From: an uncultured bacterium
GTDB taxonomy: Bacteria; Hydrothermota; UBA3072; B12-G15
Assembly (NCBI GenBank): GCA_965612735.1
Contig: CBFDSV010000004.1
Span: forward strand, 8,826 to 72,825
Length of the DNA stretch: 64,000 nt
Direction: 5' to 3'
This document shows positions 7,307 to 27,500 of this stretch, one piece after another. The notes beneath the pieces are model-generated. The model saw only the letters and a program-made list of their open reading frames with translations. It did no database searches and was not told where the DNA came from. Made by a program: the position numbers and the translations under genes. How positions within the stretch are numbered: the first letter of the stretch is position 1; the number at the start of each line of letters is the position of its first letter.

Positions 7307-9781
7307 TCACCTCCCTGTTATTATGATTTTCCTTGTCCATCTGTATCCCTGTATGCTCCATGAGAGGAAGTAAATACTGTGTGGTAGTAAGGGTGTATCA
7401 ACAATATTGCCCTTTGAAACATAGGTTACACTTCTCACAAGCCTGCCTGTAATATCCCTGTATTCAAGTTCCACACTGACGGGTGAACCCTTGCCTTCCC
7501 TTTCAAGCATGATACTCCCTGTGGTGACATTGCTCACCAGTCTGTAAATTGCAAGGGTGTCGGGTATGCCTGTGAGATAAATAAATCTCTCATTGTAGTT
7601 TACTGTTGAAGATGTTATTGAGACATCTATGTAGTGTTCTTCAATACTCTGAGGAATTACAGCAAGCCATACCCTCTCCTTATGGCCTGGTGGAATTGTG
7701 CTGAATTTATAATTACCCCCAATCATGTAAAGCCCATCATCCCCATCAAACCTGATATTAACATTGTATGCTGTTTTATTACCTATATTTGTAATCTCAA
7801 ACTCAAGATAGTTGTATCTGTTCTGTGTAACTATATCCCTCTCCCTCTTCACCTGGAATTCAGCAACAGGGAGTTTGAGTGAAACTGTATCCCTCCATTC
7901 ATCGGTTCCAAGCCTGAAGACCATCTCCATCTCCACATTTGATGGGAATGGGGGTCCAAGCATGTAGGAGTAAACAATGGTATCAAGGGAGAATGCCTCT
8001 ATGTTATAGACAAGCATTGTTTCAGGCACAGGGGTAAATCCACTGGAAAGGGAATGCATGAGAATTGTTACTGTATCAGCATTCATGTTACCATAGTTAT
8101 GTACGGAGGAAAAAACAAGGGTATCCTCATTTACCCACGATGTATCCTCTTTCAAGAATACACCCCCAGGGATAAGAACAAATCTACCAAACCCTGGTAA
8201 TGCTGAATCAGCACCCATGTAGTAATAAACGTATCCAGTATCAAAGCCTGAAAAATCCACAAAAAGAGAACCATTTGTGGTTGAATCAAAAACAGGGGTT
8301 CCACTTTGATAAAATCCTGCATAGAATGGAACAGGTATTGAGTTCTCCTCTGCTGTTAGAAGGAGCGTGCAGGTAACAGGAAAATAAATTGGTGGTTCTG
8401 AATATGCAACCTGCCTTTCCTTACCTGAGTGAACCTTCAATAATGGGTCGCCGATTATGTTGTATGCAAAGAAGTAGTATCTCATCATGGTTGTGTCATC
8501 TGCAAAATCCTTCAGTAGAATAAGTTTTGATGTATCAATTATCTCCCCAATTGTCCATTCAGGCATATATACATCTGCCATGTGCCTCTCAAGGGAGTCA
8601 TCCTCATCCCAGTATGTGTAATTTGTCGCTCCAAAGGCAATGGCACCTGCCCTATCCTTTGCCCTTGTAAGGGCCTCTGTGAAGCATTCACTGTACCTGA
8701 ACTGTCCCGTCTGGCATGCAAAACTCCAGACCATTGCAGGTTTTCTGTTTTCAGGAAGGTCATAAACATCACCAATGGTGAAGGAAGGACCAGCCCATCC
8801 ACCTGAATATCCATGGCCTGAATATACTATCAATCCCCTTCCATCTGTGAATGCATCATCAATTGGTGTTCCAGAGGAATAATAACCCCATAGGGAGTCA
8901 CACACATATCCCCTTGCCCTTAAAACCCTCATTGTGTATGCATGTGTGCTTTCTGGTATGGCATGCCAGTATGAATCAGTAGAAGATATGAAGTAGCATC
9001 TGTTTTTATAACCATTGCTTGTTTCATACTGAAAAACCTTATCCATGACATCCACAATCGTTGTGGTATCACCGCTCAATCTTCCGTATATTCTGTTGGG
9101 TACAAAAAAACTATAAGAGAGTGAATCACAGGCATAGTAAAGGTCTCCATAACACCCGCTCAAAGTATCAGTGAAGGTGGGGATAACATCCACATCACCA
9201 ACAAGAACAACGGCATCAGGGTTTCTGCTCATAATTCCCTGCCTTATGATAGAGGTATCTGTTGTATTCACAACAAATGTATCGGTTTTGTATCCCTGGA
9301 GAAGTCTGTAAACAATCAGGTCATTAATCTTTTTCAAATACTCCTCTCTTCCAACAAAGAGCACAGAGTATATGGACTTCCTTTTTACCCCTTTTACACC
9401 CTTAATATGAACATCCTTTGGATACCTCAATATGGACTTTGCAGGATTATACCTGTGTGTATGCACTTCCACAAGGAAGAGGGGTTTCCCGTTTCTGTAT
9501 CCAAGTTTTTTTATGCTATACAGTTCTTCAGGTATAAATTTGTCTGTGGCATAAACAGATTTCTTCAAGTAGAATGGAGGTGGTGGAAGGTTTTTTCTCC
9601 TGGGTGGTTGATGGGGATAAATGGGCTCTTTCAGTAATGATTCAGCATACTCCACTTTTATGTCCAGGCCTGCTGTATCCTGTGTATAGAATCTCAGGAC
9701 AGGGATTTCAGGATACCCGGGGATTGTGATATAATCATTGTAACCAGTTATCCTGACAAAGGCAAAGAACAAAAATATCAT
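7307..9781 (-). CDS. C25 (gingipain-family) cysteine peptidase with Ig-like domains and T9SS-like C-terminal domain
   Basis: VVLVGD, DLYY, GRL, YSGHG (His), FACQTG (Cys), IIGDP; C-terminal YRDITGRLV...IYFL...RKIII; start at ATGA overlap with rlmN stop. Confidence 0.85.
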
Positions 9782-10791
9782 GTGTACATCCCCCTTAACT
9801 GGCCACATGCTGCATGGACATCCCTTCCCCTGCTCCATCTGATTGTAACGGCAGGTGCTATTGGGTAGAGGTATTCAGCAAACCTGTTAACATCATCTTC
9901 ATCTGGCGATTCATAGGGGAATCCTTCAACCTGATTGTATGGAATGATGTTTATCTTTGAAGGTATCCGTGATGCAATCGCCCCAAGTGCCTCTGCATCC
10001 TCTTCAGAGTCATTGAAATTCTTGAAAAGCACATACTCAAAGGTAACCCTGAGGTGCTTCCTTGAGTAATAATAATCAAGTGCATCCATAATATCATTTA
10101 TAGTGTATGCCTTTGCCACAGGCATTATCTTTTCACGCTTTTCCTGTATTGCTGCATTTAATGAGATGGCAAGTTTGTACTGGAAGGGCGTTTCTGCAAA
10201 CCTCTTTATCCCTGGAACAATCCCTGCTGTTGATACAGTTATCTTCCTGGCACCTATACCTATGTGTTTATTTATTATCCTCAATGCCTTTAATACCTCA
10301 TCAAGGTTTGCAAAGGGTTCACCCATTCCCATAAGCACAACATTGGTTATCCTCTCCCCTGTGATTTTCTGGACTGAAAGAACCTGGTCTGCAATCTCAT
10401 AAAAGGAAAGATTTCTGATAAGCCCTATCTTGCCTGTTGCACAGAACTTACAACCCATTCCACATCCAACCTGGGTTGAAACGCACACTGTTCTTCTCTT
10501 CCCTTCAGGGATAAATACACTCTCTATTGTCTCTCCATCCTCAAGTTTGAAGAGATACTTTATTGAACCATCCCTTGAAGTGGATACATGGGCAGGTTCA
10601 AGGGATGAGATATAGAATTCATTCTTTAATCTTTCCCTCAAGGCCTTTGATATGTCTGTCATCTTTTCAAAGTCTTCAGCCCCCTTCACCCAGAGCCACC
10701 TGAATATCTGGTCAGCCCTGAATGACTTTTCATCCATTGAGGTAAAGAGTTCCCTGAGTTCTTTCAGCGTATACCCCTTTATATTTTTCAT
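9778..10791 (-). CDS. rlmN: Radical SAM 23S rRNA A2503 C2-methyltransferase
   Basis: CVSTQVGCGMGCKFC, MGMGEP, C-terminal AACGQL; start at ATG 10791 overlapping the comEA stop. Confidence 0.95.
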   Translation of the reverse strand: MKNIKGYTLKELRELFTSMDEKSFRADQIFRWLWVKGAEDFEKMTDISKALRERLKNEFYISSLEPAHVSTSRDGSIKYLFKLEDGETIESVFIPEGKRRTVCVSTQVGCGMGCKFCATGKIGLIRNLSFYEIADQVLSVQKITGERITNVVLMGMGEPFANLDEVLKALRIINKHIGIGARKITVSTAGIVPGIKRFAETPFQYKLAISLNAAIQEKREKIMPVAKAYTINDIMDALDYYYSRKHLRVTFEYVLFKNFNDSEEDAEALGAIASRIPSKINIIPYNQVEGFPYESPDEDDVNRFAEYLYPIAPAVTIRWSRGRDVHAACGQLRGMYT

Positions 10792-11147
10792 TCCCTGCCC
10801 ACTGTGAGATACTTCTTCCATTTTTCTATCTTCTTTTTTCCTATGCCTTTTATCATCTGAAGTTCCTCAAGTTTCCTTATCCTGCCCCTTTTCTCCCTGA
10901 ACTCAATTATTGCATCTGCTGTCTTTGGTCCAATACCTGGAACCTCCTGAAGAAGTTCGCTGGATGCAGTGTTCACATCTATGGGGAATATATTCACCTC
11001 CGTTTTTTTCTCTATCTCAACCATAGTCTCCTTCTCTGGAACAAAAGACTTTACAATTCCTCCAAGTATGAGTATCCCGATTATAAAGGATATAACTATT
11101 CTTTCATTCCTTGTGAATATATTACTCCATCCCCATCCCAATGGCAA
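10788..11147 (-). CDS. comEA: ComEA-family helix-hairpin-helix DNA-binding protein with N-terminal TM helix (start uncertain)
   Basis: IDVNTAS, VPGIGPKTA, IKGIGKK HhH motifs. Confidence 0.82.
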   Translation of the reverse strand: MPLGWGWSNIFTRNERIVISFIIGILILGGIVKSFVPEKETMVEIEKKTEVNIFPIDVNTASSELLQEVPGIGPKTADAIIEFREKRGRIRKLEELQMIKGIGKKKIEKWKKYLTVGRE

Positions 11148-12075
11148 ACCTCCATTCCTTATCCGTGTTTATAAAGATACCCATTGCAGGAATTATCCAT
11201 CCCTCTGGCTTTATAAATATGCCCATTTCACCCCTGAGTTCACGTGTGGTGGTTATGTTTCTCCCTGAAACACTGGAATAAGCATAAAAATGAACCTTGC
11301 CCAGGACTTTTTCCACAGTCCCCTTAACCCCGGTTATCCGATCATCGGATATATAGAATATTTGAAGGAACCCCTTTTTAAAGAGAGCCCTGTATTTTTT
11401 TCCAAGAAGGTCAATCCTGAAGTATGTATTCAAATAGAAAAGGTCGAGGGATGCTGTGGCACTGAAACTGTATTCAGGTGTCTTGAACCACCTATCATAC
11501 ACTGGTGGCAGTAGAAAACCATACCTCACCCGCAAAAACCATTCATCATCAAAAAACATTATTCCTGCAATATCCTTACCCATGGTAAATCTCAATCGTG
11601 AGAACTGGAGGACAACCCCACCATAAAGGGAATTCCTGTAGCCACCTGTTATCCCGAAAAGGTTTCTTCCAGAAGGGTAAAACACTGTGAATGAACCTGT
11701 GGGTTTTAAGGCATTATTTAACAGATAACCAGCATTCAGGATAAAGGGAAATTTTGCATATGGATTCACACTCTCAAAAAATCCAGAGGACAAGAGGGAA
11801 TCCCATTTACCTGATATAAAGAAGCCTGACCTGAGTAATAACAGGTGCATATCAAAGCCTGCCTCAATCCCTTCAACATTTGCCCTTGAATACGGAATGA
11901 CAAATTTTGGGAAGTTCAAAAATCCAAATCCACCAGGTTCATGGGTTCCAAGAACAACCCACTCTTTCACCATTATGTTGTAAACCTCAGAGGCTGGAAC
12001 CCTCCACTCTGGTGGCACTGGTCTGGGTATAAAATCATCCTCCTCAATGGAAAGGATTATGAATAAAAATATCAT
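11122..12075 (-). CDS. Hypothetical, probable outer-membrane beta-strand protein
   Basis: Short hydrophobic N-terminus, aromatic/Gly-rich alternating strands; coupled to mtnA stop. Confidence 0.5.
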   Translation of the reverse strand: MIFLFIILSIEEDDFIPRPVPPEWRVPASEVYNIMVKEWVVLGTHEPGGFGFLNFPKFVIPYSRANVEGIEAGFDMHLLLLRSGFFISGKWDSLLSSGFFESVNPYAKFPFILNAGYLLNNALKPTGSFTVFYPSGRNLFGITGGYRNSLYGGVVLQFSRLRFTMGKDIAGIMFFDDEWFLRVRYGFLLPPVYDRWFKTPEYSFSATASLDLFYLNTYFRIDLLGKKYRALFKKGFLQIFYISDDRITGVKGTVEKVLGKVHFYAYSSVSGRNITTTRELRGEMGIFIKPEGWIIPAMGIFINTDKEWRFAIGMGME

Positions 12076-13061
12076 AGTATCTTTCTGATTGAAACAGTGT
12101 ATGGTGGATGGAGTATTCCCTTTTCCGTTATAATTCCTGAAATCAGGTGGGCAGGTGTTACATCAAAGACAGGGTTCTTCACCTTAATATTCACAGGTGC
12201 AATCCTCTTTCCGCCTATATGTGTCACCTCCTCTGATGCCCTTTCCTCAATGGGTATACCATTTCCAGAAGCAATTGCAGGATCAAAGGTGGTGATTGGG
12301 GCTACAACATAAAAGGGAACACCAAAGAAGTTTGAGGCAATAGCAAGGGACAAAGTTCCTATCTTGTTTGCTGTATCACCGTTCCCCACAATCCTGTCAG
12401 CACCAACAAAGACTGCATCAACCCCTTCCCTTTCAAGCACAATTGCCCTTGCATTGTCAGCAATCAGTATGGTCTCAATCCCGTTCTTCATGAGTTCCCA
12501 TGCAGTGAGCCTTGAACCCTGTAAAAATGGCCTTGTCTCAGGAACAAAAACCCTTATCTTTTTCCCCATCTCCTTTGCCATGTAAAAAACTGCAAGGGCA
12601 GTACCAATACCCCCTGTTGCAAGTGCACCTGCATTACATATAGTCATGCATGTTGCATTATCAGGGAGTAGTTGAGCACCGTACTCACCCATTTTCTGGC
12701 ATTTCTCCCTGTCCTCATTGTGGATTGCAATTGCTTCATCAATCAGTGAAGAAATCCCCTTCTGATTGAGTGCCTTCTCCATTCTATCAAGTGCATAAAA
12801 AAGGTTGTATGCAGTAGGCCTTGACCTCTTCAGAAGGGATATTGCCTCCCTTACCTCTTTCTCTCCCTTTTTTGAAGCAAGGGCAACCCCATATCCAGCC
12901 ACCACACCAATTGCAGGCGCACCCCTAATGGCCATATCCTTTATTGCCCTGTATACATCCTCAGGTGTGCGCAACTCAAGATAAACCTCCTCATCAGGCA
13001 GTCTTCTCTGGTCAATAATTTTAACACAATCACCCATCCATTCCACTGTCTGGAATTCCAT
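12072..13061 (-). CDS. mtnA: S-methyl-5-thioribose-1-phosphate isomerase
   Basis: IDQRRLP, IRGAPAIG, SRPTAYNL, CNAGALAT, ETRPFLQG, GADRI, NKIGT, FDVTP; ATG 13061 has a GGAGG SD (13073 is the alternative). Confidence 0.93.
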   Translation of the reverse strand: MEFQTVEWMGDCVKIIDQRRLPDEEVYLELRTPEDVYRAIKDMAIRGAPAIGVVAGYGVALASKKGEKEVREAISLLKRSRPTAYNLFYALDRMEKALNQKGISSLIDEAIAIHNEDREKCQKMGEYGAQLLPDNATCMTICNAGALATGGIGTALAVFYMAKEMGKKIRVFVPETRPFLQGSRLTAWELMKNGIETILIADNARAIVLEREGVDAVFVGADRIVGNGDTANKIGTLSLAIASNFFGVPFYVVAPITTFDPAIASGNGIPIEERASEEVTHIGGKRIAPVNIKVKNPVFDVTPAHLISGIITEKGILHPPYTVSIRKIL

Positions 13062-13082
13062 CCTCTCCTCCATTTTTTATAG

Positions 13083-13111
13083 AATATAACCACTAAAGAT
13101 AAAAATGTCAA
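13083..13111 (-). promoter_or_regulatory. Putative sigma70 promoter for the mtnA-to-birA operon
   Basis: TTGACA-17-TATATT. Confidence 0.65.
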
Positions 13112-13134
13112 AGGAATTCATTTCACATCGGGGG

Positions 13135-13163
13135 TTGACTTTGAGAAATTTTTCTCCTATGAT
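13135..13163 (+). promoter_or_regulatory. Putative sigma70 promoter for the FAD oxidoreductase
   Basis: TTGACT-17-TATGAT followed by AAGGAGG SD. Confidence 0.65.
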
Positions 13164-13182
13164 TGCCAAAAAAGGAGGATAT

Positions 13183-14400
13183 ATGGATAAGGTGATAATC
13201 ATAGGTGGTGGTATAATTGGAGGAAGTATTCTATATCATTTATATAAAAATGGTTATAGAGGAAAGGCTGTTATCATTGAGGAGATGGACGCACTTGCAC
13301 AGCGTTCAACATCCCTTTCTGCTGGAGGATTCAGGAATATATGGTCAACAGAGGTGAACATGAAACTCACTACATATTCTATTAAAAGATTTTCAGAGGC
13401 AGAGAAGGAATTTGGTGTATCAATTGGTTTTGACCAGAGGGGATACCTTTTCACATTCTATGAGGATAATTTTAATATGATAAAGGATTTCAAACCAAAC
13501 TGGGACAGGGCAGGGGTCAGGACAGAACTACTTACACCGGAGGAGATTGAGAAGATGGTTCCTGGTCTTCACACATCGCTTGAGCATCTTGACCCTGAAA
13601 TCGTTGAATTCCTTGAATTAAAACCTATTGCAGGGGGTCTGCTTGGGCTTGACTGTGGACTTGTGAATCCCACACCCCTTGCAGTTGCATACATTGAAAA
13701 AACAAAGGAGATGTATCCAGAACTGGTTGAGATTAAACTGAAAACCCATGTTGACAGAATTATCTTTGAGGGTGGGAGGACAAAGGGTGTAATTACAGGT
13801 GGTGAAACAATAGAAGGAGACATAGTTGTTCTTGCCGCAGGTGCATGGTCTGCAAAGATACTTGAAGATTCAGGTGTTCCAGATGAGCAGAATATTCCTG
13901 TTGTTCCATTGAAAAGAATGCTTTATGTTGTGAACCCACCAGAAATAGAAGGAGTGCTTGATATCCCATTCACAATTATAGACAAGGGTGTCTACTTCAG
14001 GCCGGAGGCAATGAACTGGCTTGTTGGAAAGGCAAAGGAAGAACAGGAACCAGGATTTGATACAGAACCTGAAAAAGATTACTATGAGGAGTTCATAAAC
14101 TACATTATGCAGGCAAGGATTGATGGTGCTGAATACTGCAGGATTCAATCCATGTGGGGTGGACTGTATGCACATAACACAAAGGATAAGAATGGTATTG
14201 TATCCTTCCACCCTGATTTTGAAAACCTTTTCCTTGCAACAGGATTCAGCGGGCATGGTGTCATGGAGGCACCTGGAATAGGTCAATCTGTGAGTGAGTT
14301 CCTCTTGAAGGGAAAATTTGAAACAATCCCTGAGGTCTCACAACTTGATTATAAGAGATTCAGGGAGAACAAACTGGTTAAAGAGACTATCGTGATATAG
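13183..14400 (+). CDS. FAD-dependent oxidoreductase, DAO / sarcosine oxidase beta / dye-linked proline dehydrogenase family
   Basis: IIGGGIIG, STSLSAGG, LAAGAWS, ATGFSGHG; start at ATG 13183 with SD. Confidence 0.85.
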   Translation: MDKVIIIGGGIIGGSILYHLYKNGYRGKAVIIEEMDALAQRSTSLSAGGFRNIWSTEVNMKLTTYSIKRFSEAEKEFGVSIGFDQRGYLFTFYEDNFNMIKDFKPNWDRAGVRTELLTPEEIEKMVPGLHTSLEHLDPEIVEFLELKPIAGGLLGLDCGLVNPTPLAVAYIEKTKEMYPELVEIKLKTHVDRIIFEGGRTKGVITGGETIEGDIVVLAAGAWSAKILEDSGVPDEQNIPVVPLKRMLYVVNPPEIEGVLDIPFTIIDKGVYFRPEAMNWLVGKAKEEQEPGFDTEPEKDYYEEFINYIMQARIDGAEYCRIQSMWGGLYAHNTKDKNGIVSFHPDFENLFLATGFSGHGVMEAPGIGQSVSEFLLKGKFETIPEVSQLDYKRFRENKLVKETIVI

Positions 14401-15655
14401 TCTTTACCCTGTCTTCAGGCAGGATATAGGACTGCCAGTTCGGGTCGTATGGCTCATCCTTTACAGAGGAGTAAACAAGTTCATAGTTCCCATTCTCGTC
14501 CCTGTCAACAAAAACAAATTCCATGGCTGTCCCGGTCTGGTAATACCAGATGGTGTAGGGATGTATCCCCGTTTCAAAACTCCTGTTCACAACCTCATCA
14601 GGTATCCCATACTTAATCAGAATCCTTCCTCTCTCTGTATACCTTCCTTTTATATTAAACCTTGAAAATTGCTCATCCGCATACTTCACCCTCTGTATAA
14701 ACTCATCAAGTGCTTCATTCTCCGGGGTACCTGGTGTTGGGTCAAGTTTCTTCCAGAACCTTTCAACATATATTATCTTTGCTGAATCAGACAGCATATT
14801 AAATCTTTCAAGTTCGTCAGCGGATATAAGGTAATTAAGAAACATGGCATACTCAAGTTTCTTCTCTGGTATAACCCTCACAAACTCCCTCTGTAATTTT
14901 CCAAGCAACAGAAATCCCTTTCTTCTTTTCACAGAATTTTTACTATCCTTTACACTGATTTCAATGCTGTATTCACCAGGAGGAATACCAAGCAGATTCA
15001 GGGCACCTGCAATCACCATGCTTCCACCTGGATTTTTGTACTTCTCTTTTTTTACCGCTTTTACAGGAGAATCCTCAGAAAGAATATTTATTTCAACATC
15101 AACACTATCACCCGTTAAGTTATAGGCCTCTGCATAATAGGCGAGCAGAAAACTGTTCCTTGAAAATTCCGCCTCTGGATAGGGAATTATAAAATAACCG
15201 TTCTTCACAAATGGATGGGCAAAGTCTGCTTCCTTGATTGTATGGCTCAACTGTATATCACTCAAAGCAAGGCCAGACCATCCAGGGGCAATGACCCTTA
15301 TGGATGCAGAGTCAGTATTCCCTGTCAGGCTGTCCCTGAGAACCAACTTTATTCTGTAATCATAACCCTTTATAAGGAAAATGGGTATCACGTCAACTGC
15401 ACTTGATTTTCTGTATCTTGCTGCATCGGGTGATTGAATAAACATCTTTTTGGGAAGCAAAGACCTGCTCACCTGTTTCAACTCATTGTTCTGGATATCT
15501 ATCTCCACTGTGAACTTTGCAGAGTACAGACCTCCCTCTTTTGTAAATTTAAAGAATGAATATGGCTGACTCCAGTAGATTTCACAGTAGGTTGTATCCT
15601 CTGAACCCATGAATCTTGCAGCATCCAGAAATAGTGAAAGAAGTAGTAATATCAT
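14387..15655 (-). CDS. GWxTD domain-containing protein (variant GRYTERG)
   Basis: FWKKLDPTPGTPENE...RVKYAD...GRYTERGRILIKYGIPD...WYY...FVFVD. Confidence 0.85.
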   Translation of the reverse strand: MILLLLSLFLDAARFMGSEDTTYCEIYWSQPYSFFKFTKEGGLYSAKFTVEIDIQNNELKQVSRSLLPKKMFIQSPDAARYRKSSAVDVIPIFLIKGYDYRIKLVLRDSLTGNTDSASIRVIAPGWSGLALSDIQLSHTIKEADFAHPFVKNGYFIIPYPEAEFSRNSFLLAYYAEAYNLTGDSVDVEINILSEDSPVKAVKKEKYKNPGGSMVIAGALNLLGIPPGEYSIEISVKDSKNSVKRRKGFLLLGKLQREFVRVIPEKKLEYAMFLNYLISADELERFNMLSDSAKIIYVERFWKKLDPTPGTPENEALDEFIQRVKYADEQFSRFNIKGRYTERGRILIKYGIPDEVVNRSFETGIHPYTIWYYQTGTAMEFVFVDRDENGNYELVYSSVKDEPYDPNWQSYILPEDRVKTISR

Positions 15656-16776
15656 AAATCCTCCCTTGGAGGGTTGACAAGTGTGTAGTCACCAAGGTTG
15701 TATTCATCAACAAATATTAGTCTGTAACCAAGTGTATAATAGTACCATACTTCATATGCCTTTGAATCAATGTCAAATGGGTGTCTCTCAATGGAATCAG
15801 GTGGTCCAAGTTTTATATACACCCTTCCCCTGTCAGTTCTCCACCCGGGTGAGAATGGGGAACGGAAGTGTTGATTGGCAAAATCAACCCTTCTGTAATA
15901 CTCTTCAAGGAATTCATTCTTTTCCGTCCCGGGTGTTGGGTCCTTCTCATTCCAGAACCTCTCCCAGAGTTTTTTTCTCTCATCAGGGTCTGCCTTTATA
16001 AGGCTGTCAATGAAACTCTTTTTTGCTATGTATGCCATCTCCCTTGCCCTTTCAATAAATCTTCTGGACTCAAAGAAAGGTTTCTGCACCTTGAAATCTA
16101 TAGACTTCTTGCTTTTCTTTCCCGAAGGATAACCTTTTATCATAAGGTCTGCAAGGTATTCACCCTCACTGAATCTGGAGGCAGGTATATCTATGTTATA
16201 GGTGAAAAACCTGCTCTTACCTATAAATTCCTCTTCTTTTATGAATTCAGAACCAGATGGATTTTTTACAGTGAAAAGCAAAACCACTGAATCACCCCGT
16301 GGATTGAATATGTTCAAACTCAGGCTTATTGTATCATCTATTGAGAAAATCTTGCTCACAGACCTGTTCCAGTTTATCTGCCCGAGTGTAAGATTTTTAA
16401 CATCCTTAACTTCAAACTTCTTCTCCTTTGACCAGTGCCTCAATGAATTCAAATCCCAGAGTTCAAAAATCGCCCTGAATTTTCCCTTCTCCTTGAAGGC
16501 AAACTGAATCTCTCCAGTGTCTGTTTTTTCTGCTGAAATCGTGGTCTCATATTTATCAACAGAGAATTTCCTTACCTTTGAAACACCACCCACCTGCCTT
16601 TTACCATTGAACACAACAAGGGAAACCCTGTATTTGGAGATATAAGCACTGTCCACGGAGATAAAGGTAAGTTCATTGTAATTAACAGTGTACACCACCC
16701 TTACAACAGGGTTAAGGCTGTCATCCCTGAGGATTTGAAAGTTAACATCAAGGGTCAGTAAAAGTAAAAGCATCAT
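15652..16776 (-). CDS. GWxTD domain-containing protein (start 16776 or 16773)
   Basis: FWNEKDPTPGTEKNE...RVDFAN...GWRTDRGRVYIKLGPPD...EVWYY. Confidence 0.9.
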   Translation of the reverse strand: MMLLLLLTLDVNFQILRDDSLNPVVRVVYTVNYNELTFISVDSAYISKYRVSLVVFNGKRQVGGVSKVRKFSVDKYETTISAEKTDTGEIQFAFKEKGKFRAIFELWDLNSLRHWSKEKKFEVKDVKNLTLGQINWNRSVSKIFSIDDTISLSLNIFNPRGDSVVLLFTVKNPSGSEFIKEEEFIGKSRFFTYNIDIPASRFSEGEYLADLMIKGYPSGKKSKKSIDFKVQKPFFESRRFIERAREMAYIAKKSFIDSLIKADPDERKKLWERFWNEKDPTPGTEKNEFLEEYYRRVDFANQHFRSPFSPGWRTDRGRVYIKLGPPDSIERHPFDIDSKAYEVWYYYTLGYRLIFVDEYNLGDYTLVNPPREDL

Positions 16777-16779
16777 CCT

Positions 16780-16808
16780 AATTTACATAACACAGCAGTA
16801 TAAGTCAA
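16780..16808 (-). promoter_or_regulatory. Putative promoter for the GWxTD pair (leaderless)
   Basis: TTGACT-17-TAAATT, 6 nt before ATG 16773; no SD. Confidence 0.5.
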
Positions 16809-16838
16809 GTGCACCTTTTATCATCCTCAGGGAACACC

Positions 16839-18297: not shown

Positions 18298-19230
18298 CTA
18301 TATAAGAAATTTTTCTGCTTCCTGGAATGTGAATGGCTGGACTGTATACTCCTTCCCGTCAAAGACAACCTTTGTCTCTCCATATGGCTTGCAGTATCTT
18401 GCAATAATCCTAGCCGCACGAATTATGTCCTCCTCACCACCCCATTTTCTCAAAACCCCAATTGGTCCCTTTTTATCAGGTGCAGATATAAGATTTTTTC
18501 CATAGTTTTTGAGTTGTTCATTCTCAAACTGATTCCTTGCTATAACAAGGTGCATCTCCCCAAATCTGAAGTGCCTGCCTATCCTGAACAGAAGTATCTC
18601 CTCTGGCTCTATCTCATGAATAAAAGGTTTTATCCTTCTTGCAAACTGGACATCTGTAAGGATACATCCACCTGCTGGTGTATCATAGACCTTGATACCA
18701 AAATCTTCAGCGAGTTTCAGTTGTGTCTTCCTGCTCCTTCCCCTTATCCCGAGGAGTTTGTCCCTGTCAACCCACCCCTCCCTTTCAGGCAGTGTGGGAG
18801 GAAGGAGTTTTGCAGAGAGGGGCCTCAGTGTTATATCCCCAAGCCCAGTGAGTTTATCCACCTTTTTCAGTCCCTCAATTGATTGGGAGAATGGCCTTTC
18901 ACCGAGTACCTCCCCTGTTATAAGAAACCTTCCTCCAACCTCCTCCATATATTTCCCTGCCTTTTTTATCATCAGTGCATGGCAGTCTATGCAGGGATTG
19001 ATGTTTTTCCCGTATCCATAAACAGGATTTTTTACAACATTCAGATGTTCATCAGAAAAATCTATCACGTGTATATCAAGGCCATAAAGACTTCCGTATC
19101 TTTCTGCCTTTTCAGAAGAAAAGAAATAACCTTTGAATGTTACAGGAACAACCTCTATTCCCTGATTTTGAATCAATTTTATTGCAAGAAGGCTGTCAAG
19201 CCCCCCTGAAAAAAGAGCAACAGCCTTCAT
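18298..19230 (-). CDS. tRNA sulfurtransferase-like PP-loop ATPase (ThiI/MnmA-like, no THUMP) with C-terminal DUF814-like region
   Basis: LFSGGLDS, NPCIDCH, TGEVLGERPFSQ, TPAGGC, GRHFR. Confidence 0.8.
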   Translation of the reverse strand: MKAVALFSGGLDSLLAIKLIQNQGIEVVPVTFKGYFFSSEKAERYGSLYGLDIHVIDFSDEHLNVVKNPVYGYGKNINPCIDCHALMIKKAGKYMEEVGGRFLITGEVLGERPFSQSIEGLKKVDKLTGLGDITLRPLSAKLLPPTLPEREGWVDRDKLLGIRGRSRKTQLKLAEDFGIKVYDTPAGGCILTDVQFARRIKPFIHEIEPEEILLFRIGRHFRFGEMHLVIARNQFENEQLKNYGKNLISAPDKKGPIGVLRKWGGEEDIIRAARIIARYCKPYGETKVVFDGKEYTVQPFTFQEAEKFLI

Positions 19231-19856
19231 TCTCTCAAAAGGGTCACCACAATCCTTCTGTTCTTTGCCCTGCCCTCTGATGTGGAGTTATCAGCAATAG
19301 GATGATACTCTCCATAGGCAATTGCGGCAATCCTCTTCGGGTCAATCCCAACCTCCTCTATCAAAAATCTCACAACCTTCACAGCCCTTGCAGCAGAAAG
19401 TTCCCAGTTTGTCGGGTATTTCTTCTTTAATGTGCCTGAAATCCTTGAGTTGTCTGTGTGACCCTCAATGAGAATCCTTCTATTTTTAAGCCTCTTAAGT
19501 ATATTCCCAAGTTGCCTCAACAACTCTTTCCCTTCCTTACTTATCTCCACACTTCCCGGAGGAAAGAGTTTCTTTCCTGGAAGGATTATCTTTAACTGTT
19601 CATCTGTTCCAGTTATATCAATCCCTTCAAGTAGTTCCCTGAATTCTTCCTTTATTGGTATGGCTGTTGTGTCCTTCTTCTCTGTTTGTTTCACCATCTC
19701 CTTCAATCTTCCCAGTTCTTCTGCAAGCAGAAGATTCTCCTGTTTAAAGTCAGAGATCTTCTTATCCAGTGGCATGTATTTTTCAAAGTAAAAATAGGCA
19801 AACAGAATAACCCCTATAACGAGAATGATTGACAAAAACACATTTATAACCTTCAT
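19227..19856 (-). CDS. OmpA/MotB-family peptidoglycan-binding protein with N-terminal TM helix and coiled coil
   Basis: IEGHTDN, NWELSAARA, AYGEYHP, GRAKNRRI. Confidence 0.88.
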   Translation of the reverse strand: MKVINVFLSIILVIGVILFAYFYFEKYMPLDKKISDFKQENLLLAEELGRLKEMVKQTEKKDTTAIPIKEEFRELLEGIDITGTDEQLKIILPGKKLFPPGSVEISKEGKELLRQLGNILKRLKNRRILIEGHTDNSRISGTLKKKYPTNWELSAARAVKVVRFLIEEVGIDPKRIAAIAYGEYHPIADNSTSEGRAKNRRIVVTLLRE

Positions 19857-19865
19857 ATCTACCCC

Positions 19866-21956
19866 CTAAAATTCAATTCTATCCCTTCTCTCAAACAATC
19901 TTTCCTTTTTCTTCCCTGCGTGTATATCGCATTTCTCATCAGGTTCGTTCCCTTTTATAAAGACCTCTTCCCTTACCCTCGGGCAATATGGGGTGGCAAG
20001 AAGCCCTGAATCTTCACATATCACCCTTCTCACAATACTATCAGGAACAGGGAATTCAACATCTGTGGTATCCGCAACTGAATCATAAACTGCCTTCATG
20101 AATGAAACCCATAAAGGAAGAGCTGCACCCGCTCCAGTTGCATTGGTTGCAATCTTCCTGGGAACATCATATCCAACCCATACACCCGCAACATACTCTC
20201 TTGTAAATCCTATAAACCAGGCATCCTGAAAGTTGTTTGTTGTCCCTGTTTTCCCTGCCGCAGGCAACATAAACCCCATCCTTCTTGCTCCAAATGCGGT
20301 TCCGTGATTGAATACATCCATCAGCATATTTATCATAATGTATGCTGTTTGTTTTGACAGCACCCTTTCCTTTGGTGGGTCATACTCATAAACAACATTT
20401 CCAAACCTATCAATAATCTTTTTCACAATCACAGGTTCTATCCTCGTTCCATAGTTTGCCAGTGTTCCAAAGGCATCTGTCATCTCAAGCACAGTAACAC
20501 CTGAAGGACCGAGTGGTATTGAGATTACAGGGTCAAGTTTGCTCTTAACCCCCATCCTGTGTGCATAGTCTATCACCGTGAATGGACCTATTTCATACAC
20601 AAGCCTTATGGCAGCACTGTTCCTTGATAGATAGAGTGCCCTCCTCAATGTGATTTTACCCATAAAGGTGCTGTCAAAATTTGCAGGGGCATAAACCTTT
20701 TCATTTACCTGGGTGATTATGGGAAGGTCAAGGACGAAGTCTGATGGATTGTAACCATTGTCAATGGCCGCAGTATATAAAAATGCCTTGAATGATGAAC
20801 CAGCCTGCCTCTTTGCCATTGTTGCCCTGTTGAACCTGCTGTGTCTTATATTCCTTCCACCTATCATTGCAAGGACATCCCCTGTATGTGGGTCCATCAC
20901 TACCATTGCACACTGTAGATAAGGGGTATTGTCCATGGGTGGCATTGACTCAGGAAACTCACTCATTGGTTTCAACCTGTATTTCTTCTCAATCCTCTCC
21001 ATGGTAACTTCAGTCACAGAATCAGCAATCTCCTGAAGTTTCTTGTCCATACCAAGATACACCGTGTATCCACCAGTTGTAACATATGCCTTCCCGAGGA
21101 TACCTGAAAGTATCTTTTTCACCTCTTCAATATAGTACGGACCAACTGTCTTCCTCTCCTCTTTCTGTACAAATTTAAGGGTGTCATCCAGTGCCTCTCT
21201 GTACTGTGTTGAGTCAATGTAACCATCTTCCAGCATCTCTTTTAATACAATACGGATTCTCTTATCACATCTGTCTGGATGTGTATATGGTGAGTAATAT
21301 CCAGGTGACCTGATTATCCCTGCAAGGAAGGCGGCCTCTTTAAGATTCACCTGACTTACAGGCTTGCCAAGATAGAACTCAGATGCTGCCTCCACTCCAT
21401 AGTTTCCGTATCCATAATAAACCTGATTCAGGTACATCTCAAGGATATCCTTCTTTGTATAGTATCTCTCCAGTTCAATGGCAAGATACATCTCGGATAT
21501 CTTTCTTATCCAGGATTTTTCAAGGGAAAGAAGTATGTTCCTTGCGAGTTGCTGGGTGATTGTGCTGGCACCCTGAACCTTTTTTCTCTTGATTATATCA
21601 ACGATGATTGCCTTTACAATCCTTTTGTAATTCAATCCATGATGTCTGTAAAATGCCTTATCCTCAATGGATATAACTGCCTTCTGGAGGTTTTCAGGGA
21701 TTGAATCCAGTAGAACCGGTATCCTCCTGACAAGATACACATCCCTCACATGCTCACCATTCCTGTCATAGAGCCTGGTTGCAAGCACAGGATAGTAATT
21801 TTTCAATATGTCTATCTGGGGTAATGAACGGATTATCCATAGATTAAAACCAATGAATGAACCAGAACCAAAGGCAAGTATGATGTATAAAACAGGTATC
21901 CACCTTATTTTTTTTCTTTTCTTACGGTTATTTATAGGCCTGGAGTCCATCTCCAT
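19866..21956 (-). CDS. Penicillin-binding protein 1A (bifunctional transglycosylase/transpeptidase)
   Basis: EDKAFYRHHG, GASTITQQLARN, RKISE, YLNQVYYG; SSFK, SRN, KTG motifs. Confidence 0.93.
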   Translation of the reverse strand: MEMDSRPINNRKKRKKIRWIPVLYIILAFGSGSFIGFNLWIIRSLPQIDILKNYYPVLATRLYDRNGEHVRDVYLVRRIPVLLDSIPENLQKAVISIEDKAFYRHHGLNYKRIVKAIIVDIIKRKKVQGASTITQQLARNILLSLEKSWIRKISEMYLAIELERYYTKKDILEMYLNQVYYGYGNYGVEAASEFYLGKPVSQVNLKEAAFLAGIIRSPGYYSPYTHPDRCDKRIRIVLKEMLEDGYIDSTQYREALDDTLKFVQKEERKTVGPYYIEEVKKILSGILGKAYVTTGGYTVYLGMDKKLQEIADSVTEVTMERIEKKYRLKPMSEFPESMPPMDNTPYLQCAMVVMDPHTGDVLAMIGGRNIRHSRFNRATMAKRQAGSSFKAFLYTAAIDNGYNPSDFVLDLPIITQVNEKVYAPANFDSTFMGKITLRRALYLSRNSAAIRLVYEIGPFTVIDYAHRMGVKSKLDPVISIPLGPSGVTVLEMTDAFGTLANYGTRIEPVIVKKIIDRFGNVVYEYDPPKERVLSKQTAYIMINMLMDVFNHGTAFGARRMGFMLPAAGKTGTTNNFQDAWFIGFTREYVAGVWVGYDVPRKIATNATGAGAALPLWVSFMKAVYDSVADTTDVEFPVPDSIVRRVICEDSGLLATPYCPRVREEVFIKGNEPDEKCDIHAGKKKERLFERRDRIEF

Positions 21957-21957
21957 T

Positions 21958-23298
21958 CTATCTGCCAAAATACTTTTCAAATTCAGCAACAGATGGAGTT
22001 GTGCTTATCTCCCAGTATTCCCGATTTTTTATCTCTATCCACCTGTCTATCAGTTCCTCTGTAAATATTCCATCAGAGAGAAGGAAGCCTCTGTCCCTGT
22101 CCAGAGATTCAAGTGCCTCTTTCAGGCTTGATGGAAGTTCAGGGATTGAGGCTATAGCATCTATATTCCCCTTAACAGGCTCACCAGGGTCAATCCTGTT
22201 TACAATCCCATCAATCCCTGCTGCTATGATCGCGGATACAGCAAGATAAGGATTCATCAGTGCATCTGGTGGCCTGTACTCAATATCGACATTTTTCCCC
22301 TTCTGATATCCAGGTATCCTTATCGCAGCACTCCTGTTTGCCTCTGAGTATGTAATCTTTTTGGGTGCCTCAAATCCAGTGAAAAGTCTCTTGAATGAAT
22401 TTGTTCCTGGATTTGTGAACGCAGTAAGTGCACCTGCATGTTTCAAAATTCCGCCAATAAACCATCTGGCAGTCTGTGAAATAATCTCGTTCTTTTTAGA
22501 TGTATAAAAAACAGAGCCTCCATTCTTTACAAGCATCATGTGAAGATGCAGTCCACTTCCTGCCTCATTGGGAATGGGTTTGGGCATGAATGTGGTTCTC
22601 AGGTCAAACTCCACAGCAGATCTGTTAATAACAAGTTTTGAAAGCAATATATTATCAGCTGCCCCAATGGCTGGTGAGTAATCAAGTTCTATCTCATGCT
22701 GGGAGAATTTACCTCCCTCATGATGGGCATACTTGACACTTATGCCTATCTCCTTCAGGATTGTAGCGACAAATAATCTGAACTCATGGTAGGGGTCAAA
22801 TGGAACATCTCCATGGTAACTCTTCTCTGGTGCAAGGAAATCCTCGTGTGTTTCTATCTCATAATAAGATATGAATTTGTCATGCTGATAATACACATTC
22901 CTGAATATATAGAACTCCAGTTCAGGAAGGACAAGGAGTTCATCCCCTATTCCCTTTTCTCTTAAAACAGATACCGCCTTTTTAAGCACATACCTTGGAT
23001 AATGTGGGAATGGCTTATCCTCCCCTGCAAGATAAACATCACCAAACATTACAACAACAGGAACATCAGAAAATGGGTCTATAAAGAACCGTGAAGTGTC
23101 AGGAATGACTCTCATATCACTGTATTCAACACTTGCAAATCCAGGAACACTTGACCCGTCAATCCCGAACCCCTTCTTTGCAAAGGAGTCAAACCTCTCC
23201 ACAGGAAAGGTTACATGCCTCAAAAATCCGTGAAGGTCAACATACTTCACATCTATGAATTCTGCCTCTGTCTCTTTTATAAATTGCTTGATGTTCAT
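21958..23298 (-). CDS. glnA: Glutamine synthetase type I
   Basis: DGSSV, SDM, PELEF, HHE, FMPKP, GSGLHLH, GFEAP, NRSAAIRIP, EYRPPD; start at 23298 set by promoter position. Confidence 0.9.
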   Translation of the reverse strand: MNIKQFIKETEAEFIDVKYVDLHGFLRHVTFPVERFDSFAKKGFGIDGSSVPGFASVEYSDMRVIPDTSRFFIDPFSDVPVVVMFGDVYLAGEDKPFPHYPRYVLKKAVSVLREKGIGDELLVLPELEFYIFRNVYYQHDKFISYYEIETHEDFLAPEKSYHGDVPFDPYHEFRLFVATILKEIGISVKYAHHEGGKFSQHEIELDYSPAIGAADNILLSKLVINRSAVEFDLRTTFMPKPIPNEAGSGLHLHMMLVKNGGSVFYTSKKNEIISQTARWFIGGILKHAGALTAFTNPGTNSFKRLFTGFEAPKKITYSEANRSAAIRIPGYQKGKNVDIEYRPPDALMNPYLAVSAIIAAGIDGIVNRIDPGEPVKGNIDAIASIPELPSSLKEALESLDRDRGFLLSDGIFTEELIDRWIEIKNREYWEISTTPSVAEFEKYFGR

Positions 23299-23304
23299 GC
23301 CACC

Positions 23305-23333
23305 AATATAATTTAATTCATCTAAATTGTCAA
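23305..23333 (-). promoter_or_regulatory. Putative promoter for glnA (leaderless)
   Basis: TTGACA-17-TATATT-6 nt-ATG. Confidence 0.65.
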
Positions 23334-23360
23334 CAATAATATTTCCCTTTCCTGATACTG

Positions 23361-23388
23361 TTGACAATCTTCTATGCAAACTTAAAAT
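23361..23388 (+). promoter_or_regulatory. Putative promoter for the 23395 operon (leaderless)
   Basis: TTGACA-16-TAAAAT-6 nt-ATG. Confidence 0.6.
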
Positions 23389-23394
23389 TCATTT

Positions 23395-24348
23395 ATGCTG
23401 ATTCTGATACTGTCCTTCTGTGCCGCAGGTGAGGTTATCAGGGCATCCGAAAGGGTGAATGTTGTCCAATTGATAGACTCCCTTGAAAATGGCTTCACAT
23501 TCAGGTGGCATATGAAGAACAGGTTTATGAGGATGGATGCTGAAGGCGTTTACAGGGGCAGGGGTAAGGTGAATATTAAAGGAAGTATAAAATCTCCTGA
23601 AGGTACAATGGACGTTTCAGGTTATAACCCTTATGAACAGATCAAGATCGTCTGCGGTGAGAAGAGGTTTGTCTTCAAGGAGAAAAGGAGAAACACCCTC
23701 ATTTACGAATTCCCCGCAGTACTTTTCTTCCTTGACCCTGTTAAGGGGATGGGGAAAGGGCTTGTGTATATTAAGAACGGCAGGATCTTCAAAATCACTG
23801 CAGAAAATGAGAATGCAAAGTGGAGTATGGAAATTGGGATATACAGAAAACCCATCACAAAGATTCTGATTGAGTGTGATGGATGTGATATGGAGAGAAT
23901 AAAACAGAGGCTTGTGCTGTGGGGCGAAAGGGATGTTAAATTAAAAGAAAACATATTTGAATTCATTGAAGAAATTCCATTGAACAGTAAACTGTTCAAA
24001 AAAGGAACTGTGAAGTGGTATGTACTTGAAAGCAATAAGCAAGGTGAATTGAAAGACCCGCTTGATACATTATATACCTATTCCATTGATTCACTCTATA
24101 ATCCAGAGATTACCCGGATAAATTATGGAACAGACCCAAGGGGAAGACCGTCCCTCATAATAGGAATAAAGAATCCCGGGAATGGGGTAATAGGGCTTTT
24201 TGTTGATGATTCCCTTGTTTCAACATGCTACAGGAACAACCCTATGATTATTCCATTCAGGGATAGCACAGATGCAAAACTGGTTTATATTTACCTTAAA
24301 ACAGGCCAGATTGGTTCTGGCAGTATTGAAATAAGGAGGTTGAAATGA
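23395..24348 (+). CDS. Hypothetical exported protein
   Basis: 317 aa ORF, short hydrophobic N-terminus, stop overlaps the next start. Confidence 0.6.
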
Positions 24349-24509
24349 TAGATAAGGAACTCTTGAAAATTCTTGCGTGTCCCAAATGCAAGGGTGACCT
24401 TAAGTATGATGAGAAAAATGACAGACTTATATGTGAGAAGTGTAAACTCGCATATCCTATTAAGGATGGCATCCCTGTTATGCTGATTGAAGAGGCAGAA
24501 AAAATATGA
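24345..24509 (+). CDS. Trm112/YcaR-family small zinc-binding protein (54 aa)
   Basis: Missed by ORF track. [19 protein letters not shown]...[24 protein letters not shown]; ATGA overlaps at both ends. Confidence 0.92.
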
Positions 24510-27500
24510 TACTACTTCTCCTTGGCACTATAACCGTTATTTCGGACACACCTGATTCACTTATTCTTCTCTACAATGCTGAATACACGGTTGATACAAC
24601 CAATGGAATTCCACATATAAAACTCACTGATGGGGAGTGCGACCTTCCTCCCGGATATCCTGAACTACCCTATGCTGTGTATTTTGTAAGACTCCCTGAA
24701 GGAGGAGGAAATGTTGAATACAAGGTGCTTGAGAAGACCAGTGAAAACATAACACCACCTGTTGTTAAGAACGTTTATAGAGATGGTGAATATAGAACAG
24801 TGGGCTATAAACCCTCACCAGTTAAAATAGAGGTTTATGGAAAGAGAGTAAAGAAGGGAAGAGTTATTATAAATCCTTTTGTGAAAACTGGAAATAATGT
24901 TGAGGTGAGGAAGAAGATATTGATAAAAATAAGAATGAAAGGAAACTGGTTCAGGGAACGATACAAAACACCGGTGAAATTCATCAACAAAATTAGAGGA
25001 AGGATTGTATCCCTGCATCCAAAGGCGATGCCAGAAAAAGGAGGAATGTGGATAAGGCTTAAATTCACAGATGAAGGGGTTTACAGGATTGACAGGTCTG
25101 TTATTGAAGAGGCTGGAATAAACCCTGAATTGGTTGACCCTGAAAAGATTGAGGTAAGGTCTGGATACAGAAGGGTGTTCAGATTCAACCTTGCATTCTA
25201 TGATTCTTTGAAAGAACTCCCTGAAAAAATTCCAGCAATCTATCATGTTGAAAACCATAATGGTAGATTTGATGATGGAGAGTATATCCTCTTTTATGGT
25301 GTATCCCTTGAGGGATTCGAGAAAAACATATTTAAAAGATTCCCTGATTACAACCCAAGACCCTGGACAGACACATTGATGAGGTTTTACTACAATCCTT
25401 TCACAGATACAAATGTTTATTGGCTTAGGCTTGACGGTGAACCCCTTAAAATGAATAAACTCGTCTCTGGTGATGGGGAGCCAGTAACATCCTTCCAGGA
25501 TACAATGCATTTTGAGAAGGACTCATTAAATTTTTCCCGCTCAGGGCTCGCATGGACATGGGGATGCATTGTCCTTCCATCAGACGAAAACACCATTCAA
25601 AAGAAATTTCATATCATCGGGCTTGATGGCACCCGTTTTACTCTCAGGACAGGATTCTATACAATTATCAGTGGGCAAACCCACCATGTTACTTTAAGGG
25701 TGAACGATGTTGATACAACAATAACCTGCATGTCACCTCTGGGATTTTATGCAGAAAGACTGATTCTTGAAACAGACTTTGAATCTGGTCTTAATCAGGG
25801 CGAGAATACATTGACTTTCAGTGTTGATGCAGATAAGGATGAAGTATATTTTGATTTCTTTGAAATTATTTACACCAGGGCAATCTCTGATATCCACAAT
25901 GGAAGGGTCTGGTTTCCCGATTCAGGCGATAGGGTGATAAAAACAGATAAAAGAAACCTGGCACTGGGTATTGATGACCCCTACAATCCTAAGGAGTTAA
26001 CTTACAGTGAATCATCAGGTGGCTATTATTATAATGGCAAAGGAATATTCCTGTGTGATAGTCTTTTAAAGCCCCTTGAAGTAAAAATAGCAAACCCTGT
26101 CTCTCTCTGGAATGGTGGTGCTGATTGGTTGTGCATTGCAGGTGATATGTTCACAACCCAGGCAAATAAACTTGCCGAATGGCGCTCCAAACACCTTAAA
26201 GGATTCTCCAATCCAGAGGTAAAGGTGGTGAATATCTCTGAAGTATATGATAACTTTTCATACGGTGTTGCAGACCCTGGTGCAATAAAGAGATTCCTTC
26301 TCTATGCGAGCCAGAACTGGTCTCCTCCACCTTCTTATGTACTTCTACTGGGGAAGGGGACATATGACTATAAAAACCATACCGGTCTTGAAAGGTCAGA
26401 AAATATCATCCCAATACATACAAATGGTGCAGATGTTGGGATATTTACACTTCTGAGCAGAAATCCAACGGACGATGTCTGGTATGTTGATTTTGACGGT
26501 GATACGAGACCCGAAATCCCCATAGGGAGAGTTACCGCCACAACACAGGAGGAAGCAGAGGAATGGGTTGAAAAACTTATTGAATATGAAAAATCTCCTG
26601 GCCTATGGAGGCAAAAAGCCCTGATACTTGCTGATGATGAATATACAAGTAGTTCAAGCAATGAACTCCTGCATACAAGGGATGCTGAAAATACAAGTAG
26701 ATACTTACCAGATTGGTTGAAACCCGAGAAGGTTTATATGGTTCTTTATCCATTTGAAGGAAACCAGAAACCCACTGCACATAGGGATTTTATGAGTAGG
26801 CTCTCATCAGGTGCAATTATTGGATTTTTCTATGGACATGGAAATATTTACCAATTAACACACGAAAAGGTATTAACCCTTGATGATATCTCCTCATTTT
26901 CAAACTGGAGGAAATGTCCTTTCTTTTATTTTGCCACCTGCAATTCAGGGTATTTTGAAAGACCAGGGGAGAGGTCACTTGGTGATTATTTCACCCTTTA
27001 TCCTGATGGAGGTTCAATTATATCCATTGCTGCCACAAGGGCTACTTATCCTGGTGCAAACTATGCACTTGGAAGGACAATTATACAGAATATAGCCACT
27101 TCTCCAACTGCTGGTGATGCCTATGTGGCTGGAATAACAAGGTATGGTGATACCACCTATACGTTTTTTGGAGACCCTGCCACTATCCTGTTCAAAGAAT
27201 TTTTTGATACCACAATTAATGCTCCAGATACATTGCTTGGAAACAGGATATATTCCATGATTCTTCCTGTAAAACTGGATAGGGCCTATTTAATTGTAAC
27301 TGAGAAGAACATTGACACAACATACGAATCACCTGCTGGCGGAAGTATAAACTTCACCCTATCCGGAGATGAACTTTTCAGGGGTGTATTCAAAAACACC
27401 GATACTATAAAATTTACTGTTCCCTTTGATGTGAAGTCCGGGTGGGCTAAGGTGAGATTATACGGAATACTGGGTGACAGGGAAATGAGAAAGACCATCC

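Follow-up and report, generated by a model that had tools for sequence, protein, structure and literature searches.

The DNA examined here is a window of 64,000 nucleotides (the whole stretch analysed, G000:C4:8826-72825) from a genome of 2.16 Mb in 74 contigs (G000), which belongs to a WOR-3 bacterium. In this window, six genes encode proteins that begin with a very short, uncharged and hydrophobic N-terminus, and our subject is whether such N-termini act as export signals. The original prediction, made from the letters of the window, had described them as minimal export signals on envelope proteins. Profile searches against Pfam and NCBIfam with curated cut-offs agreed with its family labels for four of the six proteins (the C25 peptidase, two GWxTD proteins and a PorU-like sortase). 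The label 'outer-membrane-protein-like' given to the protein starting at 12075 was not borne out, since neither this protein nor the one starting at 23395 matched a Pfam or NCBIfam family. The nearest named relative of the PorU-like gene is a sequence 89% identical from a candidate division WOR-3 bacterium. The features concerned, with N-termini read from the sequence, are as follows.

7307..9781, minus strand: C25-family peptidase gene (Pfam Peptidase_C25, 100.3 bits), start at 9781, short N-terminus MIFLFFAFV(R) coded at 9781-9752
11122..12075, minus strand: 317-residue protein of no known family, start at 12075, N-terminus MIFLFIILSIEE (MIFLFIILS then IEEDDFIP)
14387..15655, minus strand: GWxTD-domain protein 1 (GWxTD-1; TIGR04514, 89.8 bits), start at 15655, N-terminus MILLLLSLFLD (MILLLLSLFL then DAARF)
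15652..16776, minus strand: GWxTD-domain protein 2 (GWxTD-2; TIGR04514, 120.1 bits), start at 16776 (alternative ATG at 16773), N-terminus MMLLLLLTLD (M(M)LLLLLTL then DVNFQ)
16780..16808, minus strand: sigma-70-like promoter TTGACT-17-TAAATT, abutting the GWxTD-2 start
23361..23388, plus strand: sigma-70-like promoter TTGACA-16-TAAAAT (11/12 matches), 6 nt before the ATG at 23395
23395..24348, plus strand: 317-residue probable lipoprotein, start at 23395, N-terminus MLILILSFC, with 8 residues (MLILILSF) before a conserved Cys
24506..28147, plus strand: PorU-like sortase of the type IX secretion system (T9SS; NF033707, 419.3 bits, just below the cut-off of 420), start at 24506, short N-terminus of 13 residues then DTPDSL
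37790..40426, minus strand: comparator, a protein of our home-made set with a T9SS C-terminal sorting domain (CTD), with canonical signal MVMMVKRFSFSFLGFILSLNVYG
41649..42272, plus strand: comparator, a lipoprotein with canonical signal MRTFYIAGVLILVLLSGC

All six N-termini quoted in the original prediction are present at the coordinates listed above. None has a Lys or Arg before the hydrophobic core, and the twin-arginine motif of Tat signals is likewise missing (Arg before the core in 0/6). Each contains an uncharged window of 8 residues from residue 2-3, and thus a hydrophobic region of at least about 7 residues, and a Cys at the lipobox place occurs in the 23395 protein and in none of the other five.

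The starts had been described as well constrained, and they are fixed in all six genes by in-frame stops, ATGA overlaps or abutting promoters. The four ATGA overlaps with an upstream stop (at 9781, 12075, 15655 and 24506) are real, that of the C25 gene being with the stop of rlmN, and so are the two promoter-like sites, before 23395 and before 16776/16773. The nearest upstream in-frame stop lies 2 codons from 16776, 3 from 23395, 5 from 24506 and 11 from 15655, and for 12075 it lies 29 codons away with no ATG, GTG or TTG between. The C25 frame is open for 31 codons upstream and has one more ATG 19 codons before the start, at 9838, and the sequence read from there is not signal-like either. The start at 9781 is supported by comparison with the orthologue in G002, because that protein (beginning MLFMVLSYY) opens with Met directly after a stop. 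The stop overlapping the PorU-like start (ATGA, window 24491-24509) ends a small open reading frame (ORF), which we take to resemble a Trm112-type zinc-ribbon protein.

To place these proteins in their genome, ORFs were called crudely in G000: frames had to reach 90 codons or more, the earliest ATG, GTG or TTG served as the start, and the longest frames were chosen greedily. The resulting 1878 ORFs cover 93% of the genome. A proteome-wide count of the motif had been proposed in the original prediction, and it showed the motif to be commoner at ORF starts than at internal Met. The longer version, M[ILFVM]{5}, begins 101 of the 1878 ORFs (5.4%) and follows only 30 of 13443 internal Met residues (0.22%), about 24-fold less, while the strict motif, M[ILFVM]{4}, begins 116/1878 ORFs and occurs at 92/13443 internal Met. 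The consensus of the 116 strict starts is M-I-L-L-L-L-S-L, with positions 2-6 drawn nearly always from L, I, F, V and M, and Ser commonest at position 7 (41/116). We also used a broad short class, defined by an uncharged hydrophobic window (8 uncharged residues with a mean Kyte-Doolittle value of at least 2.0) that begins at residue 2-3, is not preceded by K, R, D or E and is not followed by a membrane segment. By this definition 161 ORFs are short and uncharged and 284 look canonical. A Lys or Arg before the core is absent throughout the 161, whose uncharged runs end mostly at residue 9-16 with a peak at 10; with such runs and no charged leader they do not resemble class III (prepilin-type) signals. 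The first charged residue stands at a median position of 14 in the short class versus 24 in the canonical one, and is acidic in 101/161 versus 137/284.

Shine-Dalgarno motifs are equally frequent before short (78/161), canonical (131/284) and other ORFs (498/1171). The short class has twice the frequency of ATGA overlaps (53/161, versus 45/284 canonical and 214/1171 others). Two of the window's mRNAs, those of the 23395 protein and GWxTD-2, would be leaderless, because their promoters abut the start codons. The -10 hexamer TAAAAT stops 6 nt short of the ATG at 23395, and TAAATT stops 3 nt short of the ATG at 16776 and 6 nt short of that at 16773. Leaderless starts as a special trait of the short class were rejected, as a crude genome-wide scan found abutting promoters at 103/1878 ORFs, with 11/161 in the short class and 17/284 in the canonical one.

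These data bear on the explanation that the starts are miscalled, the true ones lying upstream and giving ordinary signals, or stop codons being read through or reassigned. The frame does stay open upstream of 12075 and of the C25 start, as described above, and about 30 further ORFs seem over-extended at their 5' end, in that an internal start after a Shine-Dalgarno motif yields the same type of N-terminus; a control stretch deeper in genes held 2 such internal starts versus the approximately 30, some of which are TTG or GTG codons within ordinary signals. Nevertheless, 62 of the 116 strict-motif ORFs have an in-frame stop no more than 5 codons upstream, and Shine-Dalgarno motifs or promoters directly precede the starts. 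The same short N-termini, nearby stops included, recur in metagenome-assembled genomes (MAGs) from different studies. The upstream stops of the 116 comprise 59 TAA, 43 TGA and 14 TAG, so that no single reassigned stop can lengthen these ORFs, and stop-codon reassignment was rejected. We therefore regard miscalled starts as already largely refuted and give this explanation almost no credence.

The proteins that carry the short form were characterised using the T9SS sorting domain. The PorU-like protein has its own type A sorting domain (TIGR04183, 34.5 bits, cut-off 23), and a CTD profile built by iteration from its C-terminus found 89 proteins in G000 with the domain at the C-terminus, 80 of them not cut by a contig end. 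The C25 peptidase belongs to this set (as g95), its CTD not being recognised by Pfam at E 0.01. An enrichment test in exported families, also proposed at the outset, was positive: 26/80 complete CTD proteins belong to the short uncharged class, as do 185/1765 of the remaining ORFs (odds ratio 4.1, p = 2e-7). A further 42 of the 80 look canonical, although about ten of these 42, in a list read by eye, have a Shine-Dalgarno motif followed by an internal start with Met and hydrophobic residues. Overall, short signals are carried by roughly a third of the exported-looking proteins of this bacterium.

A Pfam search of a random 40 of the 116 strict-motif ORFs assigned a family to 15 and none to 25. 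Eight of the 15 are of envelope types, namely Por_Secre_tail (two), POTRA with Omp85, CarboxypepD_reg with Plug (the TonB-dependent receptor type), a PPIC-type rotamase (SurA-like), Redoxin with TPR, Sortilin/BNR and Beta_helix/NosD, the last of which is really canonical, with K and R after MVMMV. Four are ambiguous (HEAT, DUF6754, Peptidase_M1 and CBM48). BamA (495.6 bits, cut-off 297) begins MLFLIIAAF, with a stop 3 codons upstream. It lies in the same orientation as a 300-residue barrel-like protein and Skp (G000:C21:12135-19647; L305, L308). The barrel-like neighbour begins MILLIFASSFA|Q, in which SFA|Q is a classical site after 11 residues, and Skp, next in the contig, has an ordinary MRK-type signal, MRKVSVILVLFSMFLFAG, so that short and canonical signals are mixed among neighbouring genes at this locus. 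Elsewhere, at G000:C28:24903-27200 (L280), a single frame holds Sm_multidrug_ex (residues 35-148), POTRA repeats and an Omp85 barrel, and may be either a fusion or two genes joined by the first-start rule.

Among relatives, the short N-termini of the window are conserved. All 19 complete PorU-like orthologues from two families (f1 and f2) are free of basic residues ahead of the core. They begin with M (V in one) and 12-14 residues before the invariant D of DTPDSL, and have stops 2-14 codons upstream; the invariant columns begin at D14. For GWxTD-2, 21 of 23 orthologues have M and 8-11 uncharged residues before (I/L)(N/D)VDFQ, and the remaining two have a longer frame, in which such a Met stands a few codons from the beginning; here the invariant columns begin at V11. 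An AlphaFold2 model of GWxTD-2 (18 orthologues, mean predicted local distance difference test score (pLDDT) 75) leaves residues 1-9 unstructured, with pLDDT below 50 over residues 1-7 and the first strand from residue 10, so that in the model the hydrophobic run is outside the fold. GWxTD-1 orthologues have M and 6-9 uncharged residues, then LNLDIAQF. The short form is also found in the relatives compared for GWxTD-1, C25 and the 12075 protein, the C25 and 12075 comparisons resting on G001, G002 and G010; the G002 orthologue of the 12075 protein begins MIFFILCIEEDKFIP, with a stop 3 codons upstream. ESM Atlas gave only weak beta-barrel porin leads for the 12075 protein (0.84-0.85) and a weak MucB/RseB-like lead for the 23395 protein (0.84).

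Synteny based on rlmN at E <= 1e-40 was found in 6 of 27 genomes, G000 included, which provided loci from 5 relatives. At that threshold the rlmN gene, the neighbour of C25, was found in only 1 of the 20 family f2 genomes (relatives G004-G026), a low count for which the threshold or a first-look filter may be responsible. The G003 copy holds one in-frame TGA.

The 23395 protein differs from the other five. Its reading as a plain mini-signal was right as to the short N-terminus, and missed that the Cys is conserved as a lipobox residue in orthologues, where Cys9 aligns with ILSC, LISC and FGC. In family f2 these orthologues have ordinary lipoprotein signals (MRRIVFVLFILSC, MMRWITILLFIFGC and MRWTILLMLILSC), whereas those of three f1 genera are short (MFFFIFISFC and MVIIFLISC among them). 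The alignment indicates that the n-region of this protein was lost within the order and the Cys kept. Among lipobox-like proteins in general, the 23395 protein is one of few exceptions in being short.

Outside this group, PorU has an ordinary signal. The comparison with Bacteroidota orthologues suggested in the original prediction found MKSK-type signals there, and outgroup PorU orthologues overall (Ignavibacteria, Bacteroidota, Calditrichota, KSB1 and one 'Stahlbacteria' MAG) have MKSK or MKK signals of about 20 residues, for example MKSKISLFFLLAFSIPLYAQ and MKKINLYLLFAATAIWAQ. Other genomes were sampled (21 to 178 ORFs each) and put through the same ORF pipeline. The strict motif, which begins 6.2% of ORFs in G000, begins 9.6% and 13.8% in two family-level relatives, 0-8.8% in five f2 genomes, 5.0% in a class-level relative (G025, f4), 6.8% in G032 (f11) and 3.9% in G034 (f12). 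Lower values were obtained for G040, G038 and G030 (1.8%, 1.4% and 0.6%) and for 'Hydrothermus pacificus' (0.8%), and none of the sampled ORFs matched in G031, G029, G028 and G027 (0%). Two control chromosomes, from an Ignavibacteriota member (1.9%) and 'Tepidiaquacella' (0.6%), are both AT-rich, and their few matches are not signal-like. On these samples, the trait is therefore confined to parts of WOR-3 and not a property of the whole phylum. At the DNA level the patterns ATG ATH YTN x4 and ATG NTN x5 fail to separate the genomes (G000 10.7/Mb, controls 5 and 10).

The class thus exists with fixed starts, shows a preference for proteins that have to cross the inner membrane and is conserved within the order. 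This agrees with the central proposal of the original prediction, a lineage-specific minimal class of export signals, which we find to be genome-wide, enriched on T9SS-CTD and outer-membrane proteins, kept across the order and replaced by canonical signals in outgroups. The members share a layout of Met, a core of about 5-9 residues rich in L, I and F, usually a small residue (most often Ser) and an acidic or polar mature start, giving approximately 7-14 residues in total before the conserved mature part, and they are used beside ordinary MKK/MRR signals. On balance, and with moderate confidence, we interpret these short N-termini as working Sec-type export signals that lack a basic n-region.

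Under this interpretation, the nascent N-terminus would be brought to SecYEG by Ffh or SecA and, being uncharged, would enter the lateral gate of SecY, so that the N-terminus, possibly still formylated, would lie inside the bilayer rather than be pinned at the cytoplasmic face. In most members, a single LepB would then cleave behind the small residue, as at VIS|DTPDSL in the PorU-like protein. Such cutting would fit those members that have a small residue (PorU-like, GWxTD-2 and the BamA neighbour), and the -3/-1 rule fits PorU-like ([VI]-x-[SAC]|D in the orthologues) and GWxTD-2, whose orthologues have [GTSA] ahead of INVDFQ. The original prediction had suggested modified recognition by Sec, the signal recognition particle or signal peptidase, which the machinery does not bear out. 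SecA (1050 bits), SecY (385), Ffh (538, with an FtsY-like second match) and LspA (102) are all ordinary single genes over curated cut-offs, as is LepB (149.2 bits, cut-off 47), a 241-residue ORF with one N-terminal hydrophobic segment; judged by presence and profile scores, nothing points to an unusual machinery. A search for a link to anionic lipids showed no contrast. No pgsA scored over its curated cut-off in G000, G002, G032, G031 or G029, in which only weak matches of 20-40 bits to CDP-alcohol phosphatidyltransferases appeared, and three of these genomes have the trait while two lack it in their samples.

Several points weigh against such signals. We built the CTD profile ourselves, as well as the ORF set, in which each of the longest ORFs begins at its first start. 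Relatives are represented by small samples, and genomes that are related do not count as independent. Cytoplasmic proteins make up 3 of the 40 sampled ORFs (saccharopine dehydrogenase, NTPase_1 and a response regulator), and therefore the motif alone is not specific. A lipobox-like motif is found in 1/161 short versus 43/284 canonical proteins; lipoproteins are thus almost never short, which argues against a general relaxation of all Sec signals. The core is no stronger than usual, the best 7-residue Kyte-Doolittle mean being 3.06 in the short class and 3.14 in the canonical one, and compensation for the missing charge by a stronger core was accordingly rejected. As to cleavage, the original prediction had seen no clear AxA site. 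This was mistaken for the PorU-like protein, where V-I-S precedes DTPDSL. GWxTD-1, C25 and the 12075 protein have no convincing -3/-1 site; the f1 GWxTD-1 proteins have F or L at the would-be -1 position. To our knowledge, no validated bacterial signal peptide is as short as 7-10 residues, and for all members of the class export and cleavage are predictions from sequence.

The cytoplasmic members, in which the hydrophobic run forms beta-strand 1 of a Rossmann, P-loop or CheY fold, raise the question of whether the N-termini are export signals at all, or instead first beta-strands, a result of AT-rich codons being favourable to initiation, or consequences of ATGA coupling. The 25 of 40 sampled ORFs without a family and the doubled frequency of ATGA overlaps in the short class would also be compatible with this. 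Yet an ATGA overlap equally permits Lys at position 2, and the two AT-rich control genomes lack the class. Moreover, the short form is enriched on CTD proteins and carried by BamA, a TonB-dependent receptor and a SurA-like protein, and in the outgroup orthologues precisely this position is taken by a canonical signal. We consider a role other than export highly improbable.

The members without an acceptable -1 residue suggest a different possibility, in which the role in export is the same and the short N-terminus is never removed but kept as a tag. Such a tag may open SecYEG, be too short for the bilayer, let the protein leave the membrane and serve as a weak handle for membrane or chaperone. 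It would account for f1 GWxTD-1 (SLF|LD and SLL|LD), for the 12075 protein (ILS|IEEDD) and its G002 orthologue (ILC|IEED), for uncharged runs of only 9-10 residues being the commonest, and for the full-length signals retained by lipoproteins, which are anchored until modified. It agrees less well with the PorU and GWxTD-2 orthologues, which retain a small residue before the conserved mature start, with the classical SFA|Q site after the 11-residue N-terminus of the BamA neighbour, or with the presence of a typical LepB. Retention in many members is the strongest competitor of our interpretation and seems unlikely, and we continue to favour working signals that are mostly cleaved. More tentatively, it is conceivable, though we lean against it, that a clade of WOR-3 has a second mode of Sec export, in which 7-10 uncharged residues, too few to reach across the membrane, would be enough to open the translocon and would be cut in the bilayer by LepB or never.

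Compared with classical signals cut by signal peptidase I, the short class is similar in being N-terminal, in its core rich in L, I and F, in its occurrence on proteins that cross the inner membrane beside ordinary SecA, SecY, Ffh and LepB, and in the small residues before the mature start of some members. It differs in lacking an n-region, in measuring approximately 7-14 instead of about 20 residues, and in having no clear cleavage site in several members. The PorU-like protein belongs to the same sortase family as PorU of Bacteroidota and Ignavibacteria and, like it, requires export by Sec ahead of T9SS. However, the signals of the latter have a Lys-rich n-region, about 20 residues and an end in ..AQ or ..PQ (MKSKIS...LYAQ type), whereas those of the WOR-3 order consist of M and 12-13 uncharged residues ending in [SAC]|D. 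Bacteroidota-type signals follow a 'Q after the cleavage site' rule. With lipoprotein signals cut by signal peptidase II, the 23395 protein shares the conserved Cys, and LspA is present; unlike them it has 8 residues before the Cys, no basic residue ahead of it and Phe at -1.

Idealised signal peptides with poly-Leu cores have been the subject of older studies, and we know of no natural, conserved and proteome-wide use of signals so short and devoid of an n-region. Our literature search, which left out supplements, found no description of a natural short signal class lacking the n-region. Words that start with 'signal' or 'secret' are absent from the recent WOR-3 papers examined (PMC12285271 among them). 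A precedent is experimental: Zalucki, Power and Jennings (2007, PMC2034453) reported a positive charge at position 2 to be dispensable for the export of two E. coli model proteins. Their variants resemble the export proposed for WOR-3 in showing that the normal Sec pathway can work with a charge-free N-terminus, but they are engineered, full-length and limited to two model proteins, whereas in WOR-3 the form occurs naturally, is shorter by 10 residues, extends over the proteome and is conserved across an order.

The short class probably represents Sec signal peptides devoid of the usual n-region. In the Methods of the SignalP 6.0 paper, the region-labelling rules demand an n-region of at least 2 residues, and standard prediction rules would probably miss the short signals. 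If about a third of exported proteins use them, predictions of the secretome and surface of WOR-3 MAGs are probably too low. A cultured WOR-3 isolate, strain sy37 (PMC12285271), offers a possible test organism, and PMC12542636 reports 181 WOR-3 MAGs. If our interpretation is true, this lineage would provide a natural case of how little of the textbook signal peptide Sec needs, a set of natural minimal secretion tags and a hint at the purpose of the n-region, as lipoproteins retain it. Should a second mode of Sec export be confirmed, these would be the shortest natural export signals known, and the n-region would be needed only for precursors that must stay anchored, such as lipoproteins.

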